From Deltaproteobacteria bacterium RIFCSPHIGHO2_01_FULL_43_49 (GTDB lineage: Bacteria > UBA10199 > SPLOWO2-01-44-7), in assembly GCA_001798075.1 (NCBI GenBank), contig MGRG01000012.1, forward strand, positions 91,852-155,851: 64,000 nucleotides of DNA. The letters run 5' to 3'. The notes under the pieces were generated by a model that was not told where the DNA came from, searched no databases, and saw only the letters and a program-made list of their open reading frames with translations. Positions 6,955-61,568 of this stretch are shown in pieces (position 1 is the stretch's first letter; each line of letters opens with the position of its first letter). Made by a program: the position numbers and the translations under genes.

Positions 6955-7064
6955 TTGATCTTACTTGATAATTTCCAACTAAAAAAAAATTTTAAAAAAT
7001 TTTAGCAACAAATTTAGAATTCTGCCGATAATAAGTGTAAGGGGATGAATTTTAGGAGGTTTAT

Positions 7065-9873: not shown

Positions 9874-10635
9874 ATGTTGCTAGCGGTCGACGTTGGAAAT
9901 ACCAACATTACATTAGGGCTTTTCGAAGATGCCAATCTCAAACACCATTGGCGCATGGAAACTGCGCGTGCGCGAACGGCCGATGAATTTGGGATTTTGT
10001 TCAAGCAGCTCTTTGATTTGGTTAAAGTTGATTTTCGCATCATCAAAGGGATTGCAATTTCAAATGTTGTTCCACAGCTGCAACATATTTTACTCACCAC
10101 ATGCCAGAGATATTTTGACCGCGAGCCATTATGGGTGACCCCCAAAACCGCAAAAATTCCTTTGCGTGTTGATCATCCCGAAGAGGTTGGTGCTGATCGT
10201 TTGTGCAATGCGGTGGCCGCCTGGGAAAAATTCAAACAGGCAACGATTGTTGTCGATTTTGGAACGGCAACCACTTTGGATATTGTCACAGCCAAAGGAG
10301 AATATGGTGGGGGAGCCATCGCGCCTGGCATTGGGATTGCTAATCTAGCTCTCACCAAAGCCGCGGCGAAACTTCCTCGTGTGGAAATCGATAAACCCAA
10401 ACGAGTTGTGGGCCGCAACACGGTAGAATGTATTCAGGCAGGACTTTATTATGGCTATGTTGGCCTTGTGGATCACTTGATTGAATTGAGTATTAAGGAA
10501 GAAGGTGTGCCAATGAAGGTGGTGGCAACAGGAGGACTCGCTTCCCTCATCGCCAAAGAATCCAAAAAGATCGAAAAGGTCGAACGATTCTTAACTCTCG
10601 AAGGCCTCTATTTTATTTGGAAGAAAAATTCTTAA
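9874..10635 (+). CDS. coaX: type III pantothenate kinase
   Basis: N-terminal LLAVDVGNTNITLGLF and overall CoaX pattern; ATG 3 nt after the rhodanese stop. Confidence 0.9.
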   Translation: MLLAVDVGNTNITLGLFEDANLKHHWRMETARARTADEFGILFKQLFDLVKVDFRIIKGIAISNVVPQLQHILLTTCQRYFDREPLWVTPKTAKIPLRVDHPEEVGADRLCNAVAAWEKFKQATIVVDFGTATTLDIVTAKGEYGGGAIAPGIGIANLALTKAAAKLPRVEIDKPKRVVGRNTVECIQAGLYYGYVGLVDHLIELSIKEEGVPMKVVATGGLASLIAKESKKIEKVERFLTLEGLYFIWKKNS

Positions 10636-11723
10636 ACCCAATTCGGAAATAATTTTTGAATAGCGGAATGAATAGCTTTGCCATTTCTTGTTTGGAGCCC
10701 CAGTTTAAGTGCAGGGTCTGAGGCGAGCGCCTTTTCAATTCCTTGATTCGCTAATTTCAAAAGGTAAGGGAGTGTTGCCGTGGTTAAGGCCTCTGTAGAA
10801 GTGCGCGGCGTTAAAGCGGGCATATTTGTTACACAGTAATGAATCACACCGCGTTCTTTATATGTTGGTTCTGCGTGAGTCGTTGGTCTGGATGTCGCAA
10901 CACATCCTCCCTGATCAATGGCTACATCAACAATGACAGACCCTTCATCCATCGCTCCAACCATTTCTTTGGTGATTACAATCGGGGCTTTGTCGCCGGA
11001 GACCAAAACAGCACCGACAACTAAATCCGATTTCTGTGCCCATTGGGAGACTGATTGAGGCGTTGATGCAATCGCCTTAACTTTTCCGCCAAATTTTTGT
11101 TCAATCAATTTTAGTTTTGCTTCTTTGATATCCAAGACCACCACTTCGCTTCTCAATCCGAGGGCTACTTCTGCCGCGTTGAGTCCCACATGCCCTGCAC
11201 CAATCACTGTTACCAAACCTTTTCGCGTTCCGGTAACACCACCCAACAATAAACCTTTGCCACCATGATTGGAGTGCAAAAGATAAGTTCCAATTTGAGT
11301 GGCAATACGACCGGCGACTTCGCTCATGGGAGTTAGAAGAGGTAGTTCTCCATCAGAGAGTTCCACTGTTTCATAGCCAATACCCGTCACTTTGTTTTGG
11401 CAGAGGGCCTCCATCAAGGGAGGGACGCTGGCCAAATGAAGATAAGTAAAAAGGGAGAGCCCCGGTTTTAAATATCGATATTCACTTTCAACGGGCTCTT
11501 TGACTTTGACGATCAGTTCGGCTTGCTCCCAGACGGCAGTACCATCTCCCAAAAGAGTAGCGCCGGCCCCCTTATAGTCATCATCCTTAAACCCGCTGGA
11601 AAGTCCCACATTTTGTTGAACAAGGACTCTGTGGCCCTCTTGGACGAGTTTTGCCACTCCCTGAGGGGTCACCGAAACTCTGGTCTCTTTGGTCTTAATT
11701 TCCTTAGGAATTCCGATAATCAT
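10632..11723 (-). CDS. ald: alanine dehydrogenase
   Basis: MIIGIPKEIK..., LFTYLHLAS, LLTPMSEVAGR, VIGAGHVGLNAAEVA, VDVAIDQGG all match alanine dehydrogenase. Start taken at the internal ATG (MIIG). Confidence 0.9.
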   Translation of the reverse strand: MIIGIPKEIKTKETRVSVTPQGVAKLVQEGHRVLVQQNVGLSSGFKDDDYKGAGATLLGDGTAVWEQAELIVKVKEPVESEYRYLKPGLSLFTYLHLASVPPLMEALCQNKVTGIGYETVELSDGELPLLTPMSEVAGRIATQIGTYLLHSNHGGKGLLLGGVTGTRKGLVTVIGAGHVGLNAAEVALGLRSEVVVLDIKEAKLKLIEQKFGGKVKAIASTPQSVSQWAQKSDLVVGAVLVSGDKAPIVITKEMVGAMDEGSVIVDVAIDQGGCVATSRPTTHAEPTYKERGVIHYCVTNMPALTPRTSTEALTTATLPYLLKLANQGIEKALASDPALKLGLQTRNGKAIHSAIQKLFPNWV

Positions 11724-11874
11724 AGCGAGTGGCTTGTATCTTAAACTCAAAAGGTAGTCACTACCTTTCTGTAAATTTTACCAAAAGGTAGCGTCTACCT
11801 TTTGATGATGCGCTGCAGCAATTTAATGCGGGCCACCTAGCAACATTCCTTACTTTCTGTCGATAAGGATAGTG

Positions 11875-23168: not shown

Positions 23169-23849
23169 ATGAACTTACATACAGACAAACGATATGAAGA
23201 GGGGCTGCAAAGCCTTAAAGAACTGATTCTCAAAATGGGTGAGGTTGTGGAGGAAATGATCGCCCTTGCGATGAAGTCTCTGGTCGATCGCAATTCCAAC
23301 CTTGTTCAGGAAGTGATTCAGAGAGATCCGGAAGTCAATGATCTGGAGATCGCCATTGATGATCGCTGTTTGGAACTGCTAGCCCTACATCAGCCTGCAG
23401 CCTCCGACCTTCGGTTCATTACCATTGGGCTGAAAATTAGCAAAGATTTGGAGCGTATTGGTGATCTCTCGGTCAATATCGTGGAAAATGCCTTGGAGAT
23501 TAATAAGGAACCTGCTTTAAAACCCTATATCGATCTTCCCAAGATGGCTTCCAAATCCCAAACCATGGTCAAAGATTCACTCGATGCCTTTGTCAAAAGG
23601 GACATCCTACAGGCAGAAAGGGTGTGCAAGGTTGATGATGAAGTTGACGATCTCAATGACCGCATTTTTGGTGAATTGGTTGCCATTATGAAAAAAGACC
23701 CAGAGTCCATTTCAAGAAGCACAAGACTCATTTCTATTGCAAAACATTTGGAGCGGATTGCCGATCATGCAACGAATATTGCCGAAGAAATCATCTTTAT
23801 GGTGAAAGGGAAAGATATCCGCCACGGCAAAATATCATTTGAGGAGTAG
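23169..23849 (+). CDS. phoU: phosphate transport system regulator PhoU
   Basis: PhoU two-repeat helical pattern (DLERIGD and HLERIADHATNIAE). Confidence 0.9.
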   Translation: MNLHTDKRYEEGLQSLKELILKMGEVVEEMIALAMKSLVDRNSNLVQEVIQRDPEVNDLEIAIDDRCLELLALHQPAASDLRFITIGLKISKDLERIGDLSVNIVENALEINKEPALKPYIDLPKMASKSQTMVKDSLDAFVKRDILQAERVCKVDDEVDDLNDRIFGELVAIMKKDPESISRSTRLISIAKHLERIADHATNIAEEIIFMVKGKDIRHGKISFEE

Positions 23850-24710
23850 TTTTTCAATTCCTTCAAAAACGGCAATAAGATGGCGGACATTTGAGACAAA
23901 GTCGATTTTGGAGACATCGATTGTCAAAACAGGGCCTTGGTACCAACCGGTCTTTTGTAAAACATCAGCAAATTGATCGTAGCGGTTATTGAGCGCTTTT
24001 ACTAAACGCACCAGCCCTTGCGGCAAGTCCTCTTTCTTATCGGGAACCAATTCTTCTTTTCTTTCTCGTTCACGAATGTTGGTTAACAACATTTCAGAAG
24101 AACCTTTCAATAAAATCATCAAGTGTGGCCTAGGAAGAGAATCAAAATCTCTTCTTAAACGCTCTTCGATATTTTGTAGGCCTTGAGCATTTAAAAACGG
24201 AATCTCCATGTCATTGTGCAACACTTCGCAGAAAGCATAACGATCGGCAAAAGGGGAGCCGTCAATGCAGGTGGAACCTTTCAAGTGGGCCACCGTTTGA
24301 AGCTGCATTTTGCGAAGGTCCAAGTAAGCGTGCTGGATATCGAGGGCCGCCTTTTCCAAATCTTTTTTGTGAAAATCCGATGGGTCTTCTAAAAAGTTGT
24401 TGATGGCTGCGTAGTAACCCCCAAGAGTTCTTTTTGCTGAGTCTTTGGCTGTGTTGAGAAGCGGATAGATCATATAATTGTGAGGGATATGATCTTCAAA
24501 ACCCTCATCCGGGAGTTCAAAAAGGGCATTCATCCCCGTGTTGAACGCCAAAAATTTTACGAGAGAACTTTTTCCTGTGCCAATATTGCCGACACACGTA
24601 ATCAAAATCTGATTTTGAGAAAAAAATTGGTGGAGCCTTCGCTCCACAGAGGTGAGACGATTTGGAATCTGATGGCGGGGTATATTTTCATCCGCAATGA
24701 GGTCAAGCAT
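23835..24710 (-). CDS. deoxynucleoside kinase family protein (P-loop)
   Basis: P-loop VGNIGTGKSS; DRY-like segment; overall dNK-like layout. Confidence 0.55.
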   Translation of the reverse strand: MLDLIADENIPRHQIPNRLTSVERRLHQFFSQNQILITCVGNIGTGKSSLVKFLAFNTGMNALFELPDEGFEDHIPHNYMIYPLLNTAKDSAKRTLGGYYAAINNFLEDPSDFHKKDLEKAALDIQHAYLDLRKMQLQTVAHLKGSTCIDGSPFADRYAFCEVLHNDMEIPFLNAQGLQNIEERLRRDFDSLPRPHLMILLKGSSEMLLTNIRERERKEELVPDKKEDLPQGLVRLVKALNNRYDQFADVLQKTGWYQGPVLTIDVSKIDFVSNVRHLIAVFEGIEKLLLK

Positions 24711-25473
24711 TGTTTCTCCTCGCGGCGATTATCCTTCTTACTTTTTCGCGGATTGTTGCTGCTGCCACATGGACATAGTCGGGGTGATCAACCATATCGA
24801 TTTCAGCTGGCAAAACAATCAAATCGATATCAGGTGGGACGATAGCAATTTCTTGATAGCGTGCGGTCACCTTTTTCCAATTGGTAACTAAGTGTTCGTA
24901 GCATTCATGAATTTCTTTTAAGTAACCGGGCTGGATGGAGGCAGCATAACCATCTCCATCTTTGGCTCTTTTTTCCCTTCTTTTTTCCAAAAGCTCCGGT
25001 TCGGAGCGCAAATAGACCATCAAATCAGGCAGCCGAATGTGCTCTTTTTCCAGAACTTGTCTTAGCATTGTTTTGTAGAGATTGGCATGGGCCTCGGGCA
25101 TCTCACCCGACTGAATCATTCTTTTGACAAAAACTTCTGGGCCATCCAAAAAAGGTCTATCCTCAACAACCAAAACGCCATGGGAATTTTCTCTAGTCAT
25201 CAAATGACGGATCTCTCTTTGTTGTTGGGTACGCATATAGAGAAAAGCGATCTCTGTTGGAAAAATGTTAGCGAGTCGATCTTGATAAAATAAAGCAAGG
25301 CATTGATCGGCTAAAGAATCTTTTTCAATTCTTTCCGAAAAAGTGTGTAGCTCGCCATTATCGAGAAGTAATTCCAAATCTTTTTTGTAAGGATCTTTCG
25401 AGAGGGCATTCATGAGGGTTGTTTTTCCCGAAAAGAGATTCCCCATGATGCCAATATGAAAATTTCTGGTCAC
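24703..25473 (-). CDS. deoxynucleoside kinase-like P-loop protein (second paralog)
   Basis: P-loop GIMGNLFSGKTTL; adjacent to the first dNK-like gene and to dgt. GTG start. Confidence 0.5.
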   Translation of the reverse strand: MTRNFHIGIMGNLFSGKTTLMNALSKDPYKKDLELLLDNGELHTFSERIEKDSLADQCLALFYQDRLANIFPTEIAFLYMRTQQQREIRHLMTRENSHGVLVVEDRPFLDGPEVFVKRMIQSGEMPEAHANLYKTMLRQVLEKEHIRLPDLMVYLRSEPELLEKRREKRAKDGDGYAASIQPGYLKEIHECYEHLVTNWKKVTARYQEIAIVPPDIDLIVLPAEIDMVDHPDYVHVAAATIREKVRRIIAARRNNA

Positions 25474-25485
25474 GCACCCTGTCTA

Positions 25486-26667
25486 TCAAACGCGCTCTTC
25501 AGGGTCAAATAACTTTTTGTACTCTTGTAGGGCGAAGCGGTCGGTCATACCGGCGATATAATCGCAAATGTGGCGTTTGAGGTCGTTGTTTTTCTTAATG
25601 CGGCTATAAAATTCATCCGGCAAGATTTTGGGATTGCCTAAATAGGCGTTGAATAGATCTGTGATCGTTCTTTTGGCCTTTTCAGCCATTCTTTCAACCC
25701 GCCAATGGCAATACATATTTTCGAAAAGAAATTTTTTGAGCTCTGCCGTCTTTTTTTGCGTTTCCGCACTTAAACCGACGACATTTTTTCCTTTGGCGCG
25801 CACCTCTTCCAGTGTTGCGATCTTTTTTTCGGTAAACCTTTTTCTTGTTTCGGTTTGCAGATCATCCACCAGTCTATGAATTAATTTGCTAACCGTTCGA
25901 AAACGCTTGACCTTGTCAGGTGCTTGAGGGAATTTTTTGGTGATTTCAGAAAAAATTTCTCGCCACAATGCAACCTCTTCCAACATTTCAAAGGTCAACA
26001 TTCCATATTGCAAACCATCATCTAAATCGTGATTCATATAGGCGATCTCATCGGCAAAATTGACTATTTGGGCTTCCAAAGTGGGATAGCCGACTTTTTT
26101 TAGTTCCTCATCATCCTCTGGTTTGTCGTATTCTGAGGAGTGTTTCAAAATGCCTTCGAGCACTTCAAACGAAAGGTTCAGTCCTAAAAAATCGGGATAA
26201 CGTTCTTCCAATTGTGTGACCACACGATAGCTTTGCTTGTTATGTTCAAACCCACCGGCGTCTTCCATCAAGACATTCATTGCCGCTTCACCCGCATGAC
26301 CAAATGGTGTATGGCCCAAGTCATGTGCCAGGGCAATCGTTTGTGCTAAATCTTCATTCAGTCTCAGCATTCTTGCGATGCCACGCGAAATTTGGCTCAC
26401 TTCCAAACTGTGTGTTAGCCGAGTGCGATAGTAATCCCCTTCATGATTGATAAAAACTTGAGTCTTGTATTCAAGGCGTCGAAAAGCGGTGGAATGAACA
26501 ATCCGATCGAGATCTCTTTGAAAACGGGTTCTGAAAATACATTCGTCTTCTGTATGTTGGCGACCGAGACTTTTTGAAGAAAGTTGGGCATACGGCGCCA
26601 ACAGATCTTTTTCCCTCTCTTCATAGGCTTCACGGTTATGCAACGGGGCGGACTTTTGTTCCGGCAT
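25486..26667 (-). CDS. dgt: dGTP triphosphohydrolase-like HD-domain protein
   Basis: HD motif region RLTHSLEVSQISRGIA...ALAHDLGHTPFGHAGE. Confidence 0.85.
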   Translation of the reverse strand: MPEQKSAPLHNREAYEEREKDLLAPYAQLSSKSLGRQHTEDECIFRTRFQRDLDRIVHSTAFRRLEYKTQVFINHEGDYYRTRLTHSLEVSQISRGIARMLRLNEDLAQTIALAHDLGHTPFGHAGEAAMNVLMEDAGGFEHNKQSYRVVTQLEERYPDFLGLNLSFEVLEGILKHSSEYDKPEDDEELKKVGYPTLEAQIVNFADEIAYMNHDLDDGLQYGMLTFEMLEEVALWREIFSEITKKFPQAPDKVKRFRTVSKLIHRLVDDLQTETRKRFTEKKIATLEEVRAKGKNVVGLSAETQKKTAELKKFLFENMYCHWRVERMAEKAKRTITDLFNAYLGNPKILPDEFYSRIKKNNDLKRHICDYIAGMTDRFALQEYKKLFDPEERV

Positions 26668-27202
26668 GGTTTACCCCCTCCATTTCTTTAACGTAGGATT
26701 TCAAAACTTCTTTGGAAAAATTCAATGGGTCGATGTCATAATCTTTCAGTCCTTTTGTCAAAACAGGTGTGTTGGCACTGGAGATGTTAATGCCTGTATG
26801 GATCAAACAGGAAACAGGCGAAGAGGTTGCCACAGAGACTGAGAGTTTTGCGTTGTCATCATACAAATCATTTCCTTTTCTTTGAACGTTTCTGCATGAA
26901 GGATTTTTGTGAAGTAAATCATGGAGAATGGCAATTAACAACCGTTGCCTCAACACCATTCTTTCTAAATCTTTGTCAAAGTGTTCCACAATGAAATGAA
27001 GCATATCTTCGCTAAAGATCGGTGCATTACGAGCCACATCTTCAAGGTCTACCATTTTTTCGATAGGGACATTGGCTGGTCCTATGAAGGAGGCGATCAC
27101 ATCCCCTTTAATGTGTGTAAAATCGCGAATCCAGTTGGATCGAAGCTGGATTCCATCATAGAGAATGGGGGTGTCGATAAAGCGACTTTTCATCGTTGCC
27201 AT
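26636..27202 (-). CDS. hypothetical protein (188 aa), first gene of the dNTP-metabolism cluster
   Basis: Intact ORF with ATG, overlapping the dgt start by 32 nt; no motif recognised. Confidence 0.45.
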   Translation of the reverse strand: MATMKSRFIDTPILYDGIQLRSNWIRDFTHIKGDVIASFIGPANVPIEKMVDLEDVARNAPIFSEDMLHFIVEHFDKDLERMVLRQRLLIAILHDLLHKNPSCRNVQRKGNDLYDDNAKLSVSVATSSPVSCLIHTGINISSANTPVLTKGLKDYDIDPLNFSKEVLKSYVKEMEGVNHAGTKVRPVA

Positions 27203-27254
27203 AAGCCAAAAAGGTCATTATCTCAGTCTATGTAAGGAAGCAACTTTTTTGAAA

Positions 27255-27393
27255 AGGTGCCGATAGATTCCCGCGGGCAAGCCCGTGGTATTCTGGGTCT
27301 CGAGTTTTAGGGAATCTACCCAGCCGCCAAAGGCGGCGAGAGGGGGAGGCTCCATCCCCGCCTTGGCGGGGTGGAGGGGGCGACGCGAGCCCC
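27255..27393. repeat. GC-rich compound palindrome in a divergent intergenic region (candidate structured RNA or regulatory DNA)
   Basis: Nested inverted repeats: AGATTCCC...GGGAATCT enclosing CGGGC-AA-GCCCG, then GCCGCC-AAA-GGCGGC and CCCCGCC-TT-GGCGGGG; a TATAAT hexamer sits 10 nt before the downstream ATG. Confidence 0.4.
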
Positions 27394-27408
27394 TATAATA
27401 GACTCATT

Positions 27409-28194
27409 ATGTTGTCTTCAATACAGGTGAGCGCCTCTTTAGCCGGAGAAGTTGGGTTTTGGGGGCAGGCTGTTTTGCTTGCTCCTAGTGGGTTGCATGC
27501 CGCTTTGCAAACCGGTTTTGATCCTGCTCAAAATGATTTAGAAGAGATTCAGGGTGTCTTACACCCTTTACGAAAAGCTCTTCTTGCGCAACATGTTGAT
27601 TTGTTAGACGTGCCGCCTTCCTTCGAAATTGGTGACAGAGAAAACGCCGCAAACCTTAAAAAAATAGCCACTTCATTTCAAGCCATTCCTCATCATCCAT
27701 ACATGGCGGCAGCCAATGCTGTTTTTTTTGGAGGCGCTCTTCGGTTTGCCACGACAAAAGATGTTTTGGAAAAAATGGCCGTCATTACAGGCCCCCCAAA
27801 TCCTTTTTATGTTTTAGTTGCTCCTGTGATTACTGCTTTTTTTATTTGGGGCGGCGAAATGGAAAGTGCTGCATTGATGCATCGAGATTTGGGAGATATT
27901 TGGATTCGCTCTGATCAGGTAGATAAAGCGAGAGAGGCCTATTGCAAAGAGGGAGATATTTGTTTGAGGTGGGCTGAAGAATTATCAAGGGAGTCAGGAA
28001 TTATACAGGGTGAGGATTCTGAGTTCCGGGCCTATTGTTTGGCGAATCAATATGTACAAAAACTGAGGCTTGCAAAAGAAGCTTACCAAAGAGCAGAATC
28101 GGAAGAGGATTTAAAAAAAATTAGAAGATTTATACAAGAAGGGGAGCGCGAAGCAGAGCATTTACGAATGCGCGCTACTTTTGCAGGCCTTTAG
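27409..28194 (+). CDS. hypothetical protein (261 aa)
   Basis: Intact ORF with ATG; no recognised domain. Confidence 0.5.
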   Translation: MLSSIQVSASLAGEVGFWGQAVLLAPSGLHAALQTGFDPAQNDLEEIQGVLHPLRKALLAQHVDLLDVPPSFEIGDRENAANLKKIATSFQAIPHHPYMAAANAVFFGGALRFATTKDVLEKMAVITGPPNPFYVLVAPVITAFFIWGGEMESAALMHRDLGDIWIRSDQVDKAREAYCKEGDICLRWAEELSRESGIIQGEDSEFRAYCLANQYVQKLRLAKEAYQRAESEEDLKKIRRFIQEGEREAEHLRMRATFAGL

Positions 28195-28196
28195 AT

Positions 28197-28886
28197 TTAA
28201 AAGCGGTGGCTGATTTTTTCGGAAAGATCGTTAGCTTTAAAAGCAGCTAGCGTTCTGGCACAGGACTCGCAAACTCCACACATCTTTTCTTTTCCTTCGT
28301 AGCAACTCCAAAAATTATCGAGAGGAAGATCGAGTTCAATGAGTTTTGCAACCATCTCTTTTTTATTTATTTCTTGAACGTAGCTTTTAACTTTTGGAGG
28401 ATAAAGAAGGGTGGAGAGTTCCAGGGCGCGGTTTAGGCGATGGACATAATCAGAACTATTATCGGGAAAAGTGGCGGCCTCTTCGCGGTTAAAGCCGGTG
28501 ATAATCGTTGTTGCGCCTAAACTTTCCGCAAAAGAAGCCGCGATGTTTAAAAAAACGCCATTGCGGTTGGGGACCCAAACAGCCTCCGCTGATTTTTCGG
28601 TTGCCTTTTTGTCTTTGAGTTTTTCCAAATCGCTAAAACGGGGGAGCAAAGTCGTCGTATGGGTCAGGGCATTTTCACCTAAACTTTTAAGCCAAGGGAG
28701 TTCCACAACCTGATGTTTAATCCGCCAAAGCTTTGCGATTTTTTGTGCCGCTTTGGTTTCTTGGTTGGCTGCTCGCTGGCCGTAGTTGAAGGTAAGTGCC
28801 AAGACCACTTCATGATATTGCTTTGCAACGGCCGTCGAAAGGTAGGAATCTAATCCACCAGAAAGTAGAGTAACAGCGCGATCCAT
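28197..28886 (-). CDS. queC: 7-cyano-7-deazaguanine synthase
   Basis: PP-loop LLSGGLDSYLS and C-terminal zinc-binding cysteines (CGVCESCARTLAAF). Confidence 0.9.
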   Translation of the reverse strand: MDRAVTLLSGGLDSYLSTAVAKQYHEVVLALTFNYGQRAANQETKAAQKIAKLWRIKHQVVELPWLKSLGENALTHTTTLLPRFSDLEKLKDKKATEKSAEAVWVPNRNGVFLNIAASFAESLGATTIITGFNREEAATFPDNSSDYVHRLNRALELSTLLYPPKVKSYVQEINKKEMVAKLIELDLPLDNFWSCYEGKEKMCGVCESCARTLAAFKANDLSEKISHRF

Positions 28887-29513: not shown

Positions 29514-29544
29514 ATACCGCACGGTACCAGGTACCTGGCGGTAT
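29514..29544. repeat. REP-like palindrome (ATACCGCACGGTACCAGGTACCTGGCGGTAT)
   Basis: Near-perfect 31-bp palindrome abutting the RAYT stop codon. Confidence 0.8.
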
Positions 29545-30206
29545 TAGAGAACCACTTTTATTCGATTTGCAAGCCCATTTACTTGGTTCACCATCGCCGA
29601 AACCCGGCGTGATGTTGTCGCCTTAGATTCTTCCAAGAGGTTATGAGTTTTATCGGAAGGCAGCGGCGTCATAACAAGTTCTCTGTAAACTCTTTTACGT
29701 TTTTCATCATCGTTCACTAGGCCAAGGTAAGAAGGATGAAATTCTAATAATTCGTTTGGTGTGCCAAATGCATAGTAGGTATAACCACTCCATAACCAAT
29801 CTTCTGGTCTGATTACAAGTCCAGCAGATAGGGAGTTTCTATGCTGATAACGTAAACAAGCTAACGCATAGCGATCATTAGGAATGATATTGCTTCGATA
29901 TCGATGGGCCCAAAAGTGCCCGATTCTGTTATGCCGCTGATTAAAATCTTTAGCATATTTTAAACAAAGTTCCTGCATGATTTGGTCGATAAAATATCCC
30001 GTATGGGTGGAGAGGAGGAGATGGATATGCGAATGAAGCAGTTCATAATTATAAAGCCTGAATGCAAACTTCTCTTTAACCGCAGCTAACATTTCCAAGA
30101 ATATTTTGAAGTCTTCTTCTGTCTGAAGCAAATGCTCTTTGTTATTACATCGCAAAATGGTGTGATAATGAATGTCATCACCTTTGATTCGTGGCGCTCT
30201 AGGCAT
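29544..30206 (-). CDS. REP-associated tyrosine transposase (IS200/IS605 Y1 HUH family)
   Basis: HUH motif HSHIHLLL, conserved Tyr region (HFWAHRYRS), typical ~220-aa size. Confidence 0.85.
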   Translation of the reverse strand: MPRAPRIKGDDIHYHTILRCNNKEHLLQTEEDFKIFLEMLAAVKEKFAFRLYNYELLHSHIHLLLSTHTGYFIDQIMQELCLKYAKDFNQRHNRIGHFWAHRYRSNIIPNDRYALACLRYQHRNSLSAGLVIRPEDWLWSGYTYYAFGTPNELLEFHPSYLGLVNDDEKRKRVYRELVMTPLPSDKTHNLLEESKATTSRRVSAMVNQVNGLANRIKVVL

Positions 30207-30224: not shown

Positions 30225-30283
30225 CTTACCGTGTGGTACCTGGTACCAGGCGGTACCGTGGGGTACCTGGTACCGAGTGGTAA
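30225..30283. repeat. REP-like palindrome doublet
   Basis: GTGGTACCTGGTACCAGGCGGTACC followed by GTGGGGTACCTGGTACCGAGTGGTA, directly upstream of the RAYT start. Confidence 0.8.
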
Positions 30284-30383
30284 TGCGAAAGGCGTGCCAA
30301 AATGAAAGGCTTTAGTTTTCAATAGGTTAGATTTTTTGGGGGTGCTGCAACTGACGAAATATGAACAGGTGCCGACGGATTTT

Positions 30384-30412
30384 TACCACCAGGTACCTGG
30401 TACCTGGTGGTA
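30384..30412. repeat. REP-like palindrome (TACCACCAGGTACCTGGTACCTGGTGGTA)
   Basis: Near-perfect palindrome sharing the GGTACC(W)GGTACC core. Confidence 0.8.
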
Positions 30413-31234: not shown

Positions 31235-31335
31235 TCACTTCAAATCTTTAATCTTTAGCTGAATGGTTTTGATGTTGAGGTAGGTGTTCCATTGAGGGAC
31301 AAAGGCGATGTTGCCGCTACTTAGTGTTTACCGCC
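31235..31335 (-). pseudogene. duplicated 3' remnant of recJ (encodes ..GNIAFVPQWNTYLNIKTIQLKIKDLK*)
   Basis: Reverse-complement translation matches the true RecJ C-terminus (GGNVAFVPQWNTYQNQKTIQLKIKDLKRI*); about 80% nucleotide identity to 34118-34205 by eye. Confidence 0.7.
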
Positions 31336-34104: not shown

Positions 34105-35807
34105 ATTCTTTTGAGGTCTTTTATCTTTAATTGGATTGTTTTTTGATTTTGGTAGGTGTTCCATTGGGGGACAAAGGCGACATTGCCCCCCTTAAGTGTC
34201 AACGGATGGTTGTTGCTCATATTAAACCCGATTGCTTCCAATGTGGTTTCCAAATCGGTCACTTTGAATTTCAAATGTTTTTCGCCCACGACACGCAAGT
34301 CATTAAATTTTAGATCGTTGCAGGCAAAAACCGGTTCTGGATTTTTGATTCCAAAAGGTTTGAGAGACCCCAATTCTTCAAGAAACTTTGCTTGAATGTC
34401 ATTTAATTTTAATTCGCAATCGATATTCAAGAAAGGCTTAAATGGTTCTTCCAAGACTTTTTGTTGGAGTGCCTTTTCGAAACGTTCTTCAAATTGGCTT
34501 AAATTTGTTAGCGAAACCGTAAGGCCGGCCGCTTGTTTGTGCCCACCAAATTGCTCTAGCAAATCGGAACAGGCCTCTAAAATTTCAACAATGTGTACTC
34601 CGGGAATGCTTCTTGCCGAACCTCTCGCAAAATCTTTTTCGATCGCCAAAGCAATAGAGGGGCGGTAATAATTTTCTGCGAGTTTGGAAGCGACCAATCC
34701 GACGATGCCCGGATGCCAATCTTTTGAAGAAACAACAAAACCGTTTTTTGCTAATTTATCTTCCGCCTGTCTAAAAGCTTCTCTCACATGTTTTTCCTGC
34801 ATCGCCTGTCTTTCTTGATTGCATTGGTCTAAAATCTTAGCAAGCTTACTAGCCCTTTCTAAATCGGCAGCACAAAGCAGATCCAAGCCCAGAGAGGCTT
34901 TGGCGATCCGACCACCGGCATTGATGCGGGGTGCTAATCGAAATCCAATATCGGATGGCTCCATGGTTTTACCGCCATCTAACTTACAGACTTCTTTCAG
35001 CGCGATGATGCCCATTTTTTTTGTGACTGCTAACTCTTTGAGCCCATAAGTCACCAAAATCCGGTTGATGCCGGTCAAGGGCGCTAAATCACCGACGGTT
35101 CCCAGTGCCACAAGATCTAAATGTTGCCTTAAGTTTGGCTCCCCATTTTTGAAGAGACCCTCCTCCCGCATTTTTTGACGTAGGGCTATGAGCAACATAA
35201 AAACAACACCGACACCGGCAAGCTCTCTGCCAGGTGTTCCTTCTTTCAACATCTGCGGATTGATGAAAGCAAAAGCAGGAGATTTCCTCGAATCCAATTC
35301 GTGATGATCGGTAACAATCACATCCAACCCATTTTTTTTAGCCCATTGAAGTGCATCCTGCGACTTTGTGCCGCAGTCGGCTGTAATAATGAGCGAAATC
35401 TTTTTGGCTTTCAGCTCCTCCAAGGCTTTGATATTGATTCCATAACCTTCTTGAATTCGGTCAGGGATATAAACAGTGAGGGGCAAGCTCAACTCAGTAA
35501 AAAATGTTTGAAGAAGTGCGGAAGAAGTAAGTCCATCGACATCATAGTCTCCATAAACAGCAATCGATTCTCGATTTTGGATGGCTTGAATCAAACGCCG
35601 GACAGCTTTTTCCATATCTGGAAAAAGAAAGGGGTTGGGCAAATCTTTTAAAGAAGGCTTCAAAAAAGCTTGTACCTTTTCTGGTTCGTCAATGCCACGA
35701 TTAATAAGGATTTGCGCAGTAACCCAAGAGATTCCCAGCGCTTCAGCTAAACGCTTCTGGAGTGATGGGTTAGGGGACGAAATCCTCCAGGTTTTTTGCA
35801 GGGGCAT
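34101..35807 (-). CDS. recJ: single-stranded-DNA-specific exonuclease RecJ
   Basis: DHH-family motifs (VYGDYDVDGLTS, DHHE) and RecJ-like overall sequence. Confidence 0.9.
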   Translation of the reverse strand: MPLQKTWRISSPNPSLQKRLAEALGISWVTAQILINRGIDEPEKVQAFLKPSLKDLPNPFLFPDMEKAVRRLIQAIQNRESIAVYGDYDVDGLTSSALLQTFFTELSLPLTVYIPDRIQEGYGINIKALEELKAKKISLIITADCGTKSQDALQWAKKNGLDVIVTDHHELDSRKSPAFAFINPQMLKEGTPGRELAGVGVVFMLLIALRQKMREEGLFKNGEPNLRQHLDLVALGTVGDLAPLTGINRILVTYGLKELAVTKKMGIIALKEVCKLDGGKTMEPSDIGFRLAPRINAGGRIAKASLGLDLLCAADLERASKLAKILDQCNQERQAMQEKHVREAFRQAEDKLAKNGFVVSSKDWHPGIVGLVASKLAENYYRPSIALAIEKDFARGSARSIPGVHIVEILEACSDLLEQFGGHKQAAGLTVSLTNLSQFEERFEKALQQKVLEEPFKPFLNIDCELKLNDIQAKFLEELGSLKPFGIKNPEPVFACNDLKFNDLRVVGEKHLKFKVTDLETTLEAIGFNMSNNHPLTLKGGNVAFVPQWNTYQNQKTIQLKIKDLKRI

Positions 35808-42211: not shown

Positions 42212-42300
42212 CTTGGTGAGTGGGTGGCCCGGAGTGTTTGTTGTGGGGTTTAGTTAGGGGCCCCCACAAAAACACGGAGGGACAGGCCCTACTCACCAAG
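42212..42300 (+). repeat. palindromic structured element, copy 1
   Basis: Conserved core TGGGTGGCCCGGAGTGTTTG.TGTGGGGTTTAGTTAGGGGCCCCCACA.AAACACGGAGGG.CAGG shared with 60460-60546; outer stem CTTGGTGAGT / ACTCACCAAG is complementary. Confidence 0.65.
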
Positions 42301-42305
42301 CCAAG

Positions 42306-42335
42306 GAAGCAACATTTTTGGGGATTTGCCGATAA
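42306..42335 (+). promoter_or_regulatory. conserved 30-bp box (GAAGCAACATTTTTGGGGATTTGCCGATAA), candidate ECF-type promoter or operator
   Basis: 27 of 30 positions identical to 46416-46445; AAC at the -35-like position and CGA about 17 nt downstream. Confidence 0.35.
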
Positions 42336-46415: not shown

Positions 46416-46445
46416 GAAGCAACTTTTTTGAGGATTTGCCGAAAA
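46416..46445 (+). promoter_or_regulatory. conserved 30-bp box copy 2 (GAAGCAACTTTTTTGAGGATTTGCCGAAAA), candidate promoter of the four-gene operon
   Basis: 27 of 30 identical to 42306-42335; ends about 20 nt before the operon start codon, followed by RBS AGGAGAGG. Confidence 0.35.
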
Positions 46446-60305: not shown

Positions 60306-60322
60306 TTATTTACCTCCGTTTT

Positions 60323-60411
60323 GTTGAAAATGACGGGCTCCGGGTCGGCTTGCTGCACGCCCTCCCGACAGATCGGGCTGACAGCTGCGCCGACCACCCG
60401 TCATTTTCAAC
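60323..60411. repeat. GC-rich palindromic element in the rsmD leader region
   Basis: Perfect 14-bp inverted repeat GTTGAAAATGACGG / CCGTCATTTTCAAC separated by a GC-rich 61 bp with internal complementarity; lies 18 nt upstream of the rsmD start, adjacent to its GGAGG RBS. Confidence 0.55.
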
Positions 60412-60459
60412 TTCACATTTTTCGGAGCACCTATGCGAAAACACCCTATCTTAATGATT

Positions 60460-60546
60460 GGAGTGAATGGGTGGCCCGGAGTGTTTGCTGTGGGGTTTAG
60501 TTAGGGGCCCCCACAGAAACACGGAGGGGCAGGACCCGTTCACTCC
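60460..60546 (+). repeat. palindromic structured element, copy 2
   Basis: Same core as 42212-42300 with a different but still complementary outer stem (GGAGTGAA / TTCACTCC). Confidence 0.65.
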
Positions 60547-61483: not shown

Positions 61484-61505
61484 CGGGTCCTGCCCCTCCG
61501 TGTTT
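61484..61505 (-). repeat. inverted partial copy of the palindromic element core
   Basis: CGGGTCCTGCCCCTCCGTGTTT is the reverse complement of the 3' part of copy 2 (AAACACGGAGGGGCAGGACCCG) and is followed by a T-run, just after the SHOCT gene stop. Confidence 0.6.
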
Positions 61506-61568
61506 TTTTGTTCAGAAGCAACTTTTTTGGCGCCCCGCCGAAGAACCCATCAGAAAGGTCTTATTTCC

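Follow-up and report, generated by a model that had tools for sequence, protein, structure and literature searches.

Stem-loops at the 5' terminus stabilise bacterial mRNAs, the leader of ompA being one example. Small palindromic intergenic repeats such as ERIC, BOX, Correia/NEMIS and MITE-like elements are co-transcribed with genes and can change the stability of the mRNA (PMC3184786). For the promoters of the sigma-28 (FliA) type, the E. coli consensus is TAAAGTTT-n11-GCCGATAA (PMC2859248), and in Bdellovibrio the attack-phase promoters have the form TTAAG-N16-CCGATA (PMC3627812). Two-thirds of these attack-phase promoters are of the sigma-28 type, including those of non-flagellar genes and of structured small RNAs (PMC3627812).

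Here, a GC-rich compound palindrome of 127 nt (positions 27267-27393, plus strand, with boundaries uncertain by a few bases) was analysed within the window, that is, the whole 64-kb stretch of DNA under study. The reading towards which we lean is that this block is an insertion between a sigma-28-type promoter and the native leader of a hypothetical gene, carried as a passenger in the mRNA leader.

The GC-rich block and its hairpins

The block lies in a 206-nt spacer between the DUF366 gene (identified by Pfam; 26636-27202, minus strand) and a conserved hypothetical gene of 261 aa (27409-28194, plus strand), which has the promoter and the insertion upstream, so that the divergent intergenic setting described in the earlier note was confirmed by the strands of both genes. 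The right two-thirds of the spacer form a GC island, with values of 0.60-0.66 in 100-nt windows compared to 0.39 immediately left of the block and 0.44 across the whole window.

Regarding the flanking genes, no Pfam or NCBIfam match was found for the 261-aa protein. The DUF366 gene is the first of an operon that continues with an HD-phosphohydrolase (dGTPase-like) and two deoxynucleoside kinases, and a possible extended -10 sequence, TGAGATAAT, at 27225-27217, outside the insertion, could belong to a promoter of its own. The queC gene is located at 28197-28886, and the hypothetical gene separates it from DUF366 in this region (23835-28886); in many distant relatives (loci L005-L015) queC stands directly upstream of DUF366. 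A link of the DUF366 operon to 7-deazaguanine metabolism is suggestive only.

All four of the nested GC-rich stems that had been claimed for the spacer were found at their positions. Hairpin 1 (27264-27318) has a perfect outer stem of 9 bp, formed by TAGATTCCC (27264-27272) and GGGAATCTA (27310-27318), which encloses a small hairpin, CGGGC-AA-GCCCG (27274-27285; arms at 27274-27278 and 27281-27285). Hairpin 2 (27323-27337) is made of GCCGCC (27323-27328), an AAA loop and GGCGGC (27332-27337). Hairpin 3 (27350-27376), CTCCA(T)CCCCGCC-TT-GGCGGGGTGGAG, has a core of CCCCGCC (27356-27362) and GGCGGGG (27365-27371), and CTCCA/TGGAG extends this stem with one bulged T. Hairpins 2 and 3 have the core of one palindrome type and could also pair with each other. 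A fifth stem, absent from the earlier list, was formed by GGGGC (27377-27381) and GCCCC (27389-27393), yielding hairpin 4 (27377-27393; GGGGC-GACGCGA-GCCCC). Hairpin 4 was considered as a terminator and ruled out, as no T-run follows the stem; a terminator scan of 26900-27700 detected no terminator-like site.

The block exceeded chance in its structure, though modestly. A count of perfect inverted repeats of at least 6 nt gave six in the block compared to 2.2 +/- 1.6 expected (P = 0.03), and their summed arm length gave P = 0.015, both from 2000 dinucleotide shuffles. Fold prediction on both strands, a check proposed for the hairpins, returned z-scores of -1.9 to -2.2 for RNA of the plus strand and for DNA of both strands, and of -3.0 for RNA of the minus strand; structure beyond that of shuffled sequence was thus borne out, at a modest z of about -2 to -3. 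On a reading of the sequence, the asymmetry of G-U versus A-C in the stems favoured neither strand.

The dyad CCGCC-N2-3-GGCGG was present in two copies, 34 nt apart, versus 0.08 expected, and nowhere else in the window. An internal tandem duplication of a unit of about 34 nt was also considered and rejected, as the units match at only about 21/41 columns; the mean column identity of 76% for the alignment of these units is a figure reported by the tool. Tandem Repeats Finder found nothing in the block, and internal repetition is not supported beyond the repeated CCGCC...GGCGG dyad.

Putative sigma-28-type promoters in the window

Directly adjoining the block and facing the hypothetical gene, a predicted promoter of the sigma-28 (FliA) type occupies positions 27240-27266 of the plus strand, in the form GCAACTTT-N11-GCCGATAG, with a predicted transcript start at about 27273. 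Its -35-like box (27240-27247) agrees with that of E. coli, TAAAGTTT, at 5/8 positions, and its -10 box (27259-27266), located after the 11-nt spacer, agrees with GCCGATAA at 7/8. The site resembles sigma-28 promoters in its -10 box and in the 11 nt that separate this box from an 8-mer with TTT as its last bases, whereas its -35 half is GCAACTTT instead of the TAAAGTTT of the E. coli consensus.

The motif recurs along the window. The pattern GCAAC-N15-SCGAWR was found at six sites, all of them on the plus strand, compared to 0.36 expected, and the 30-nt motif GAAGCAACTTTTTTG-N7-GCCGATAA, corresponding to families D2 and D19 of the repeat scan, lies in every copy just upstream of a plus-strand gene (2062-2091, 7002-7031, 27237-27266, 42306-42335, 46416-46445 and 61515-61544, all plus strand). 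The spacing between the -35 and -10 boxes is exactly 11 nt in the six copies, and the other copies show GCCGATAA, GCCGAAAA or GGCGATAG as the -10 box. In these other five, a start codon is located 9-71 nt downstream of the -10 box: four have a Shine-Dalgarno sequence and then an ATG, 20-71 nt past the box, and in the remaining one, that of gene 2101, the ATG comes after 9 nt. The genes downstream of the copies encode a HAMP-GAF-GGDEF diguanylate cyclase, an M20 peptidase and hypothetical proteins; no fliA or flagellar genes were seen in the window. Judged by its sequence, the motif represents a sigma-28/FliA-like promoter family, with sigma-28 dependence predicted, and it is like that of Bdellovibrio in that this promoter type serves non-flagellar genes and short non-coding transcripts.

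Other assignments were tried and discarded. On the minus strand, AAAAAAGTTGCTT could pass for the -35/UP region of a DUF366 promoter, but this reading was dropped because the full 30-nt motif faces plus-strand genes. A sigma-54 promoter was rejected, with a GG-to-GC spacing of 20 nt and not 12. Gene 2101, which has the promoter type in common with the 261-aa gene, was also considered as its paralogue and rejected.

Two further promoter copies were found outside the window on locus L109 (2759-2890 and 3691-3790), at about 5.1 and 4.2 kb beyond its left end. Both are followed by 65-100 nt and then by a hairpin with a T-run, and the two short transcripts would have similar 5' ends, (T/C)AGTA(A/G)TGAGAG; no Rfam match was found for either. 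This pair are probably FliA-dependent small RNA genes, and are put forward as candidates.

The block in related genomes

The relatives compared were the nearest in the genome collection, which are metagenome-assembled genomes labelled Deltaproteobacteria with DUF366 proteins of 62-67% identity, and short contigs at 72-80%, recovered by way of the protein collection. A divergent gene was located beside DUF366 in 6/6 related loci (L002, L003, L004, L084, L085 and L107), and the promoter was kept in 4/6. In these four (L002, L003, L004 and L107), the motif points towards the divergent neighbour of DUF366, which is the same hypothetical gene or one in the same position. L084 and L085, the closest two relatives (DUF366 77-79% identical), do not have a clean copy of the motif, and only 31 and 44 nt, respectively, separate their divergent start codons. 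Homologues of the 261-aa protein are encoded divergently from DUF366 in L085 (44% identity, E 1e-21) and L084 (34%, E 3e-15), and the same-position genes in L003 and L004 show a weaker, N-terminal similarity to it.

The earlier note had named a lack of conservation in related genomes among the results that would refute it. The block was present in none of the six loci, which argues against a conserved regulatory element. The distance from the -10 box to the ATG, which is 142 nt here, was 7-27 nt in L002, L003, L004 and L107, and 7-34 nt in an alignment of these four with three other window copies. Because of this difference, and of the short spacers of L084 and L085, the segment 27267-27393 is, on comparison of the sequences, a species-specific insertion between promoter and gene.

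An assembly artefact or chimeric join could produce a similar picture, and short chimeric contigs of the locus do exist (P0002). However, the separate assemblies of two samples (window/L001 and L106) agree at every base of the 206-nt spacer, and in a third assembly, L082, the part of the spacer that is covered was also identical, although this assembly breaks inside hairpin 3, as an artefact might lead one to expect. As the gene was moreover found in 33 blocks of the collection, an artefact is scarcely credible.

No relative of the block was detected in 85 loci from related genomes, in plasmid and phage collections or in three viral scans. A protein search with a six-frame peptide query, aimed at spurious ORFs on other copies, did not find any relative either. 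Two metagenome scans gave no match in one case and 20 matches in the other; the latter were obtained with a 20-mer and arose by chance within GC-rich coding sequence for FPAGKPV, and both scans missed the present locus too, being uninformative on further copies in the same genome. A JGI contig of the same organism matched the window at 100% identity along 12.9 kb. The earlier note had also proposed a search for similar elements elsewhere in the genome, and only one copy of the block was present in the 79 kb made up of the window and two loci that flank it.

Transcription, possible function and origin of the block

A TATAAT hexamer had been described upstream of the start codon, and it was found at 27394-27399, with 9 bases between it and the ATG at 27409. 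It forms part of a short leader (27394-27408, plus strand), TATAATAGACTCATT, which has no Shine-Dalgarno sequence and resembles the GCATAAGCGAGACAT-ATG of L003 and the GCATAAACAACGC-ATG of L004. At other promoter copies the -10 box is followed by TATAG, GTATAG, TAAGT or TAGTA. Because a TATA-type sequence trails the -10 box at these copies, the hexamer reads as the native transcript start, and it is probably native leader sequence rather than a -10 box.

In the main rival explanation, which we consider less likely, the block would be upstream promoter DNA, a near-leaderless mRNA would start from the TATAAT, and the palindromes would act at the DNA level, either as operators for dimeric regulators or by uncoupling the gene from the old sigma-28-type promoter. 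Such a mRNA would fit with a perfect TATAAT that precedes by 9 nt an ATG lacking a Shine-Dalgarno sequence, and short leaders are known for this promoter family (7 nt in L002 and 9 nt in gene 2101). The pair of dyads unique in the window (2 versus 0.08 expected) is also in line with it, as is the outer stem of hairpin 1, which overlaps the -10 box and would form in DNA only. However, the earlier suggestion of the hexamer as a -10 box with a leaderless or very short-leader transcript found little support, as the site has neither a -35 match (GTGGAG at the 17-nt spacing) nor a TG extension and was not called by the promoter scan. Furthermore, the 9 bases in between make a long spacing if transcription began at the A of the ATG, the usual TATA-type sequence after the -10 box at other copies explains the hexamer otherwise, and with the dyads confined to this spot in the 64 kb, no regulon is visible.

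The alternative raised in the earlier note, transcription of the structure from further upstream, is supported by the sigma-28-type promoter that ends at 27266 and faces the gene. In the passenger-leader reading, RNA polymerase would start near 27273 and read the hairpins on the plus strand into the gene, and a leader that once measured 7-30 nt would become a GC-rich one of about 136 nt without a Shine-Dalgarno sequence. In hairpin 1, the left arm of the outer stem coincides in part with the -10 box and precedes the predicted start; because this arm would be left untranscribed, the outer stem could form in DNA and would lie outside the predicted RNA. Given the predicted start near 27273, only a few bases would then separate the CGGGC-AA-GCCCG hairpin from the 5' terminus of the mRNA, in a manner like that of the ompA-type leaders. 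Such a 5'-end stem could slow decay, and the bulk of the structure could alter translation; the effect, if any, would be generic, through the stability of the mRNA, the efficiency of its translation or the distance between promoter and gene.

It was also considered that the block could be a recently acquired functional structured RNA, either a FliA-dependent cis-regulatory leader (a thermosensor, or a protein-binding or ligand-binding variant) or a small RNA that processing would release from the 5' end of the mRNA. In favour of this, a strong promoter-like site is found immediately upstream, this promoter type precedes the two short terminator-ended transcripts nearby as well as small RNAs in Bdellovibrio (PMC3627812), an alternative pairing between hairpins 2 and 3 is feasible, and the GC content is far above that of the genome, as expected of a selected structure. 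Against this, the block was absent from every related genome recovered, no homologue was detected in any search, the z-score is only about -2, and the G-U versus A-C asymmetry favours neither strand. The Rfam scan that had been proposed gave no match at gathering thresholds in the whole window, and with permissive filters over 27150-27460 only chance-level matches were obtained, none of them convincing even at E = 10; the best, to a microRNA model, scored 20.9 bits versus a cut-off of 100. No tRNA or tmRNA was found, and a preQ1 or other 7-deazaguanine riboswitch, a candidate prompted by the nearby queC and DUF366, was rejected as it had no Rfam match.

The features expected of particular RNA classes were also missing. 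For a cis-regulatory leader or riboswitch, there was no conservation upstream of the same gene in the six related loci; for an expression platform, there was neither a terminator-like site nor a Shine-Dalgarno sequence to sequester. The AUG region pairs in a local hairpin with the coding region, in which the block is not involved. For an independent small RNA gene, the promoter-like site is present but there is no terminator between 27273 and the ATG, in contrast to the two L109 sites, which carry both. Consequently, a functional structured RNA is unlikely: the block is probably no conserved regulatory RNA, and its hairpins do not resemble a switch that responds to a ligand or a signal. That it would be a new functional RNA module under a FliA-type promoter, acting as a signal-responsive leader or as a 5'-processed small RNA, is quite unlikely; if true, it would represent a regulatory RNA born by insertion at the promoter-to-start junction and caught in a snapshot.

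A mobile or repeat origin of the block is plausible but unproven, and is unsupported because only one copy was found in 79 kb, terminal inverted repeats are lacking and the flanking repeat is doubtful. The ends, ATTCCCGCGGGC... and ...GCGAGCCCC, are not complementary for any choice of boundary considered. The flanking repeat would be ATAGA (5 nt; 27263-27267 and 27398-27402) or TA (2 nt), and given the freedom in placing the boundaries, the chance of such a repeat was roughly estimated at about 0.1. The block is like ERIC, BOX and Correia elements in its length (these being about 100-160 nt), in being non-coding, in its stem-loops, in its transcribed intergenic site and in being limited to one lineage; in contrast, those families have many copies, terminal inverted repeats and target duplications, compared to the one copy of the block in 79 kb.

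The block also resembles REP/BIME elements, which are short GC-rich imperfect palindromes clustered intergenically, and a RAYT-like gene is located 2.1 kb away. However, the palindromes of this gene, GGTACCWGGTACC, share nothing with the block, and the assignment of the block as its REP element was rejected for this reason. The gene, an IS200-like Y1 transposase (29544-30206, minus strand), had as its best model the REP-associated tyrosine transposase, at 54 bits, below the cut-off of 80. Four GGTACCWGGTACC palindromes flank it (29514-29543, 30226-30282 and 30383-30412) and occur nowhere else in the 79 kb; a palindrome similar to GGTACCWGGTACC was also seen beside the promoter in L107.

Small palindromic repeats abound in this genome. 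A GC-rich hairpin repeat family, termed 'D4', was found with units of about 85 nt and three full copies in the 79 kb (42216-42296, 60463-60543 and, on the minus strand, L109 7435-7525), in addition to a partial copy at 61484-61510. The full copies keep one long hairpin, with compensatory double changes in 5/31 pairs, and two 'D4' copies abut the -35 side of sigma-28-like promoters. The block is like this family in being GC-rich, hairpin-forming and intergenic, but it consists of four short hairpins instead of one long one and has no sequence similarity to it. None of the hairpins of the block recurs elsewhere in the window or in the 79 kb, and no sequence in common was detected with the other hairpin or palindrome elements of the genome.

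Other repeats were noted along the window. Adjoining a 'D4' copy, in a divergent intergenic region, a single GC-rich hairpin of about 100 nt (60320-60420) has perfect 15-nt termini, GTTGAAAATGACGGG and CCCGTCATTTTCAAC. A palindrome with 29-nt arms, 86% complementary and with a 1-nt gap, is located at 11747-11805 between divergent genes (10632-11750, minus strand; 11872 onward, plus strand) and is operator-like in appearance. An 83-nt direct repeat (31245-31327 and 34117-34199; 77% identical) brackets the genes of the segment 31421-34104, the GC content of which is above that of its surroundings.

The block is thus regarded as an orphan insertion of a single lineage, with no sign of a dedicated mechanism, and matters little on its own. 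Nevertheless, it illustrates that a perfect TATAAT near a start codon need not be a promoter, and that a small insertion can give a near-leaderless gene a long structured leader. Of greater interest than the block, arguably, are the promoter family and the family of hairpin repeats. The block led to the first of these, a promoter family predicted to be of the sigma-28 type and to serve non-flagellar genes and probable small RNAs in an uncultured bacterium.
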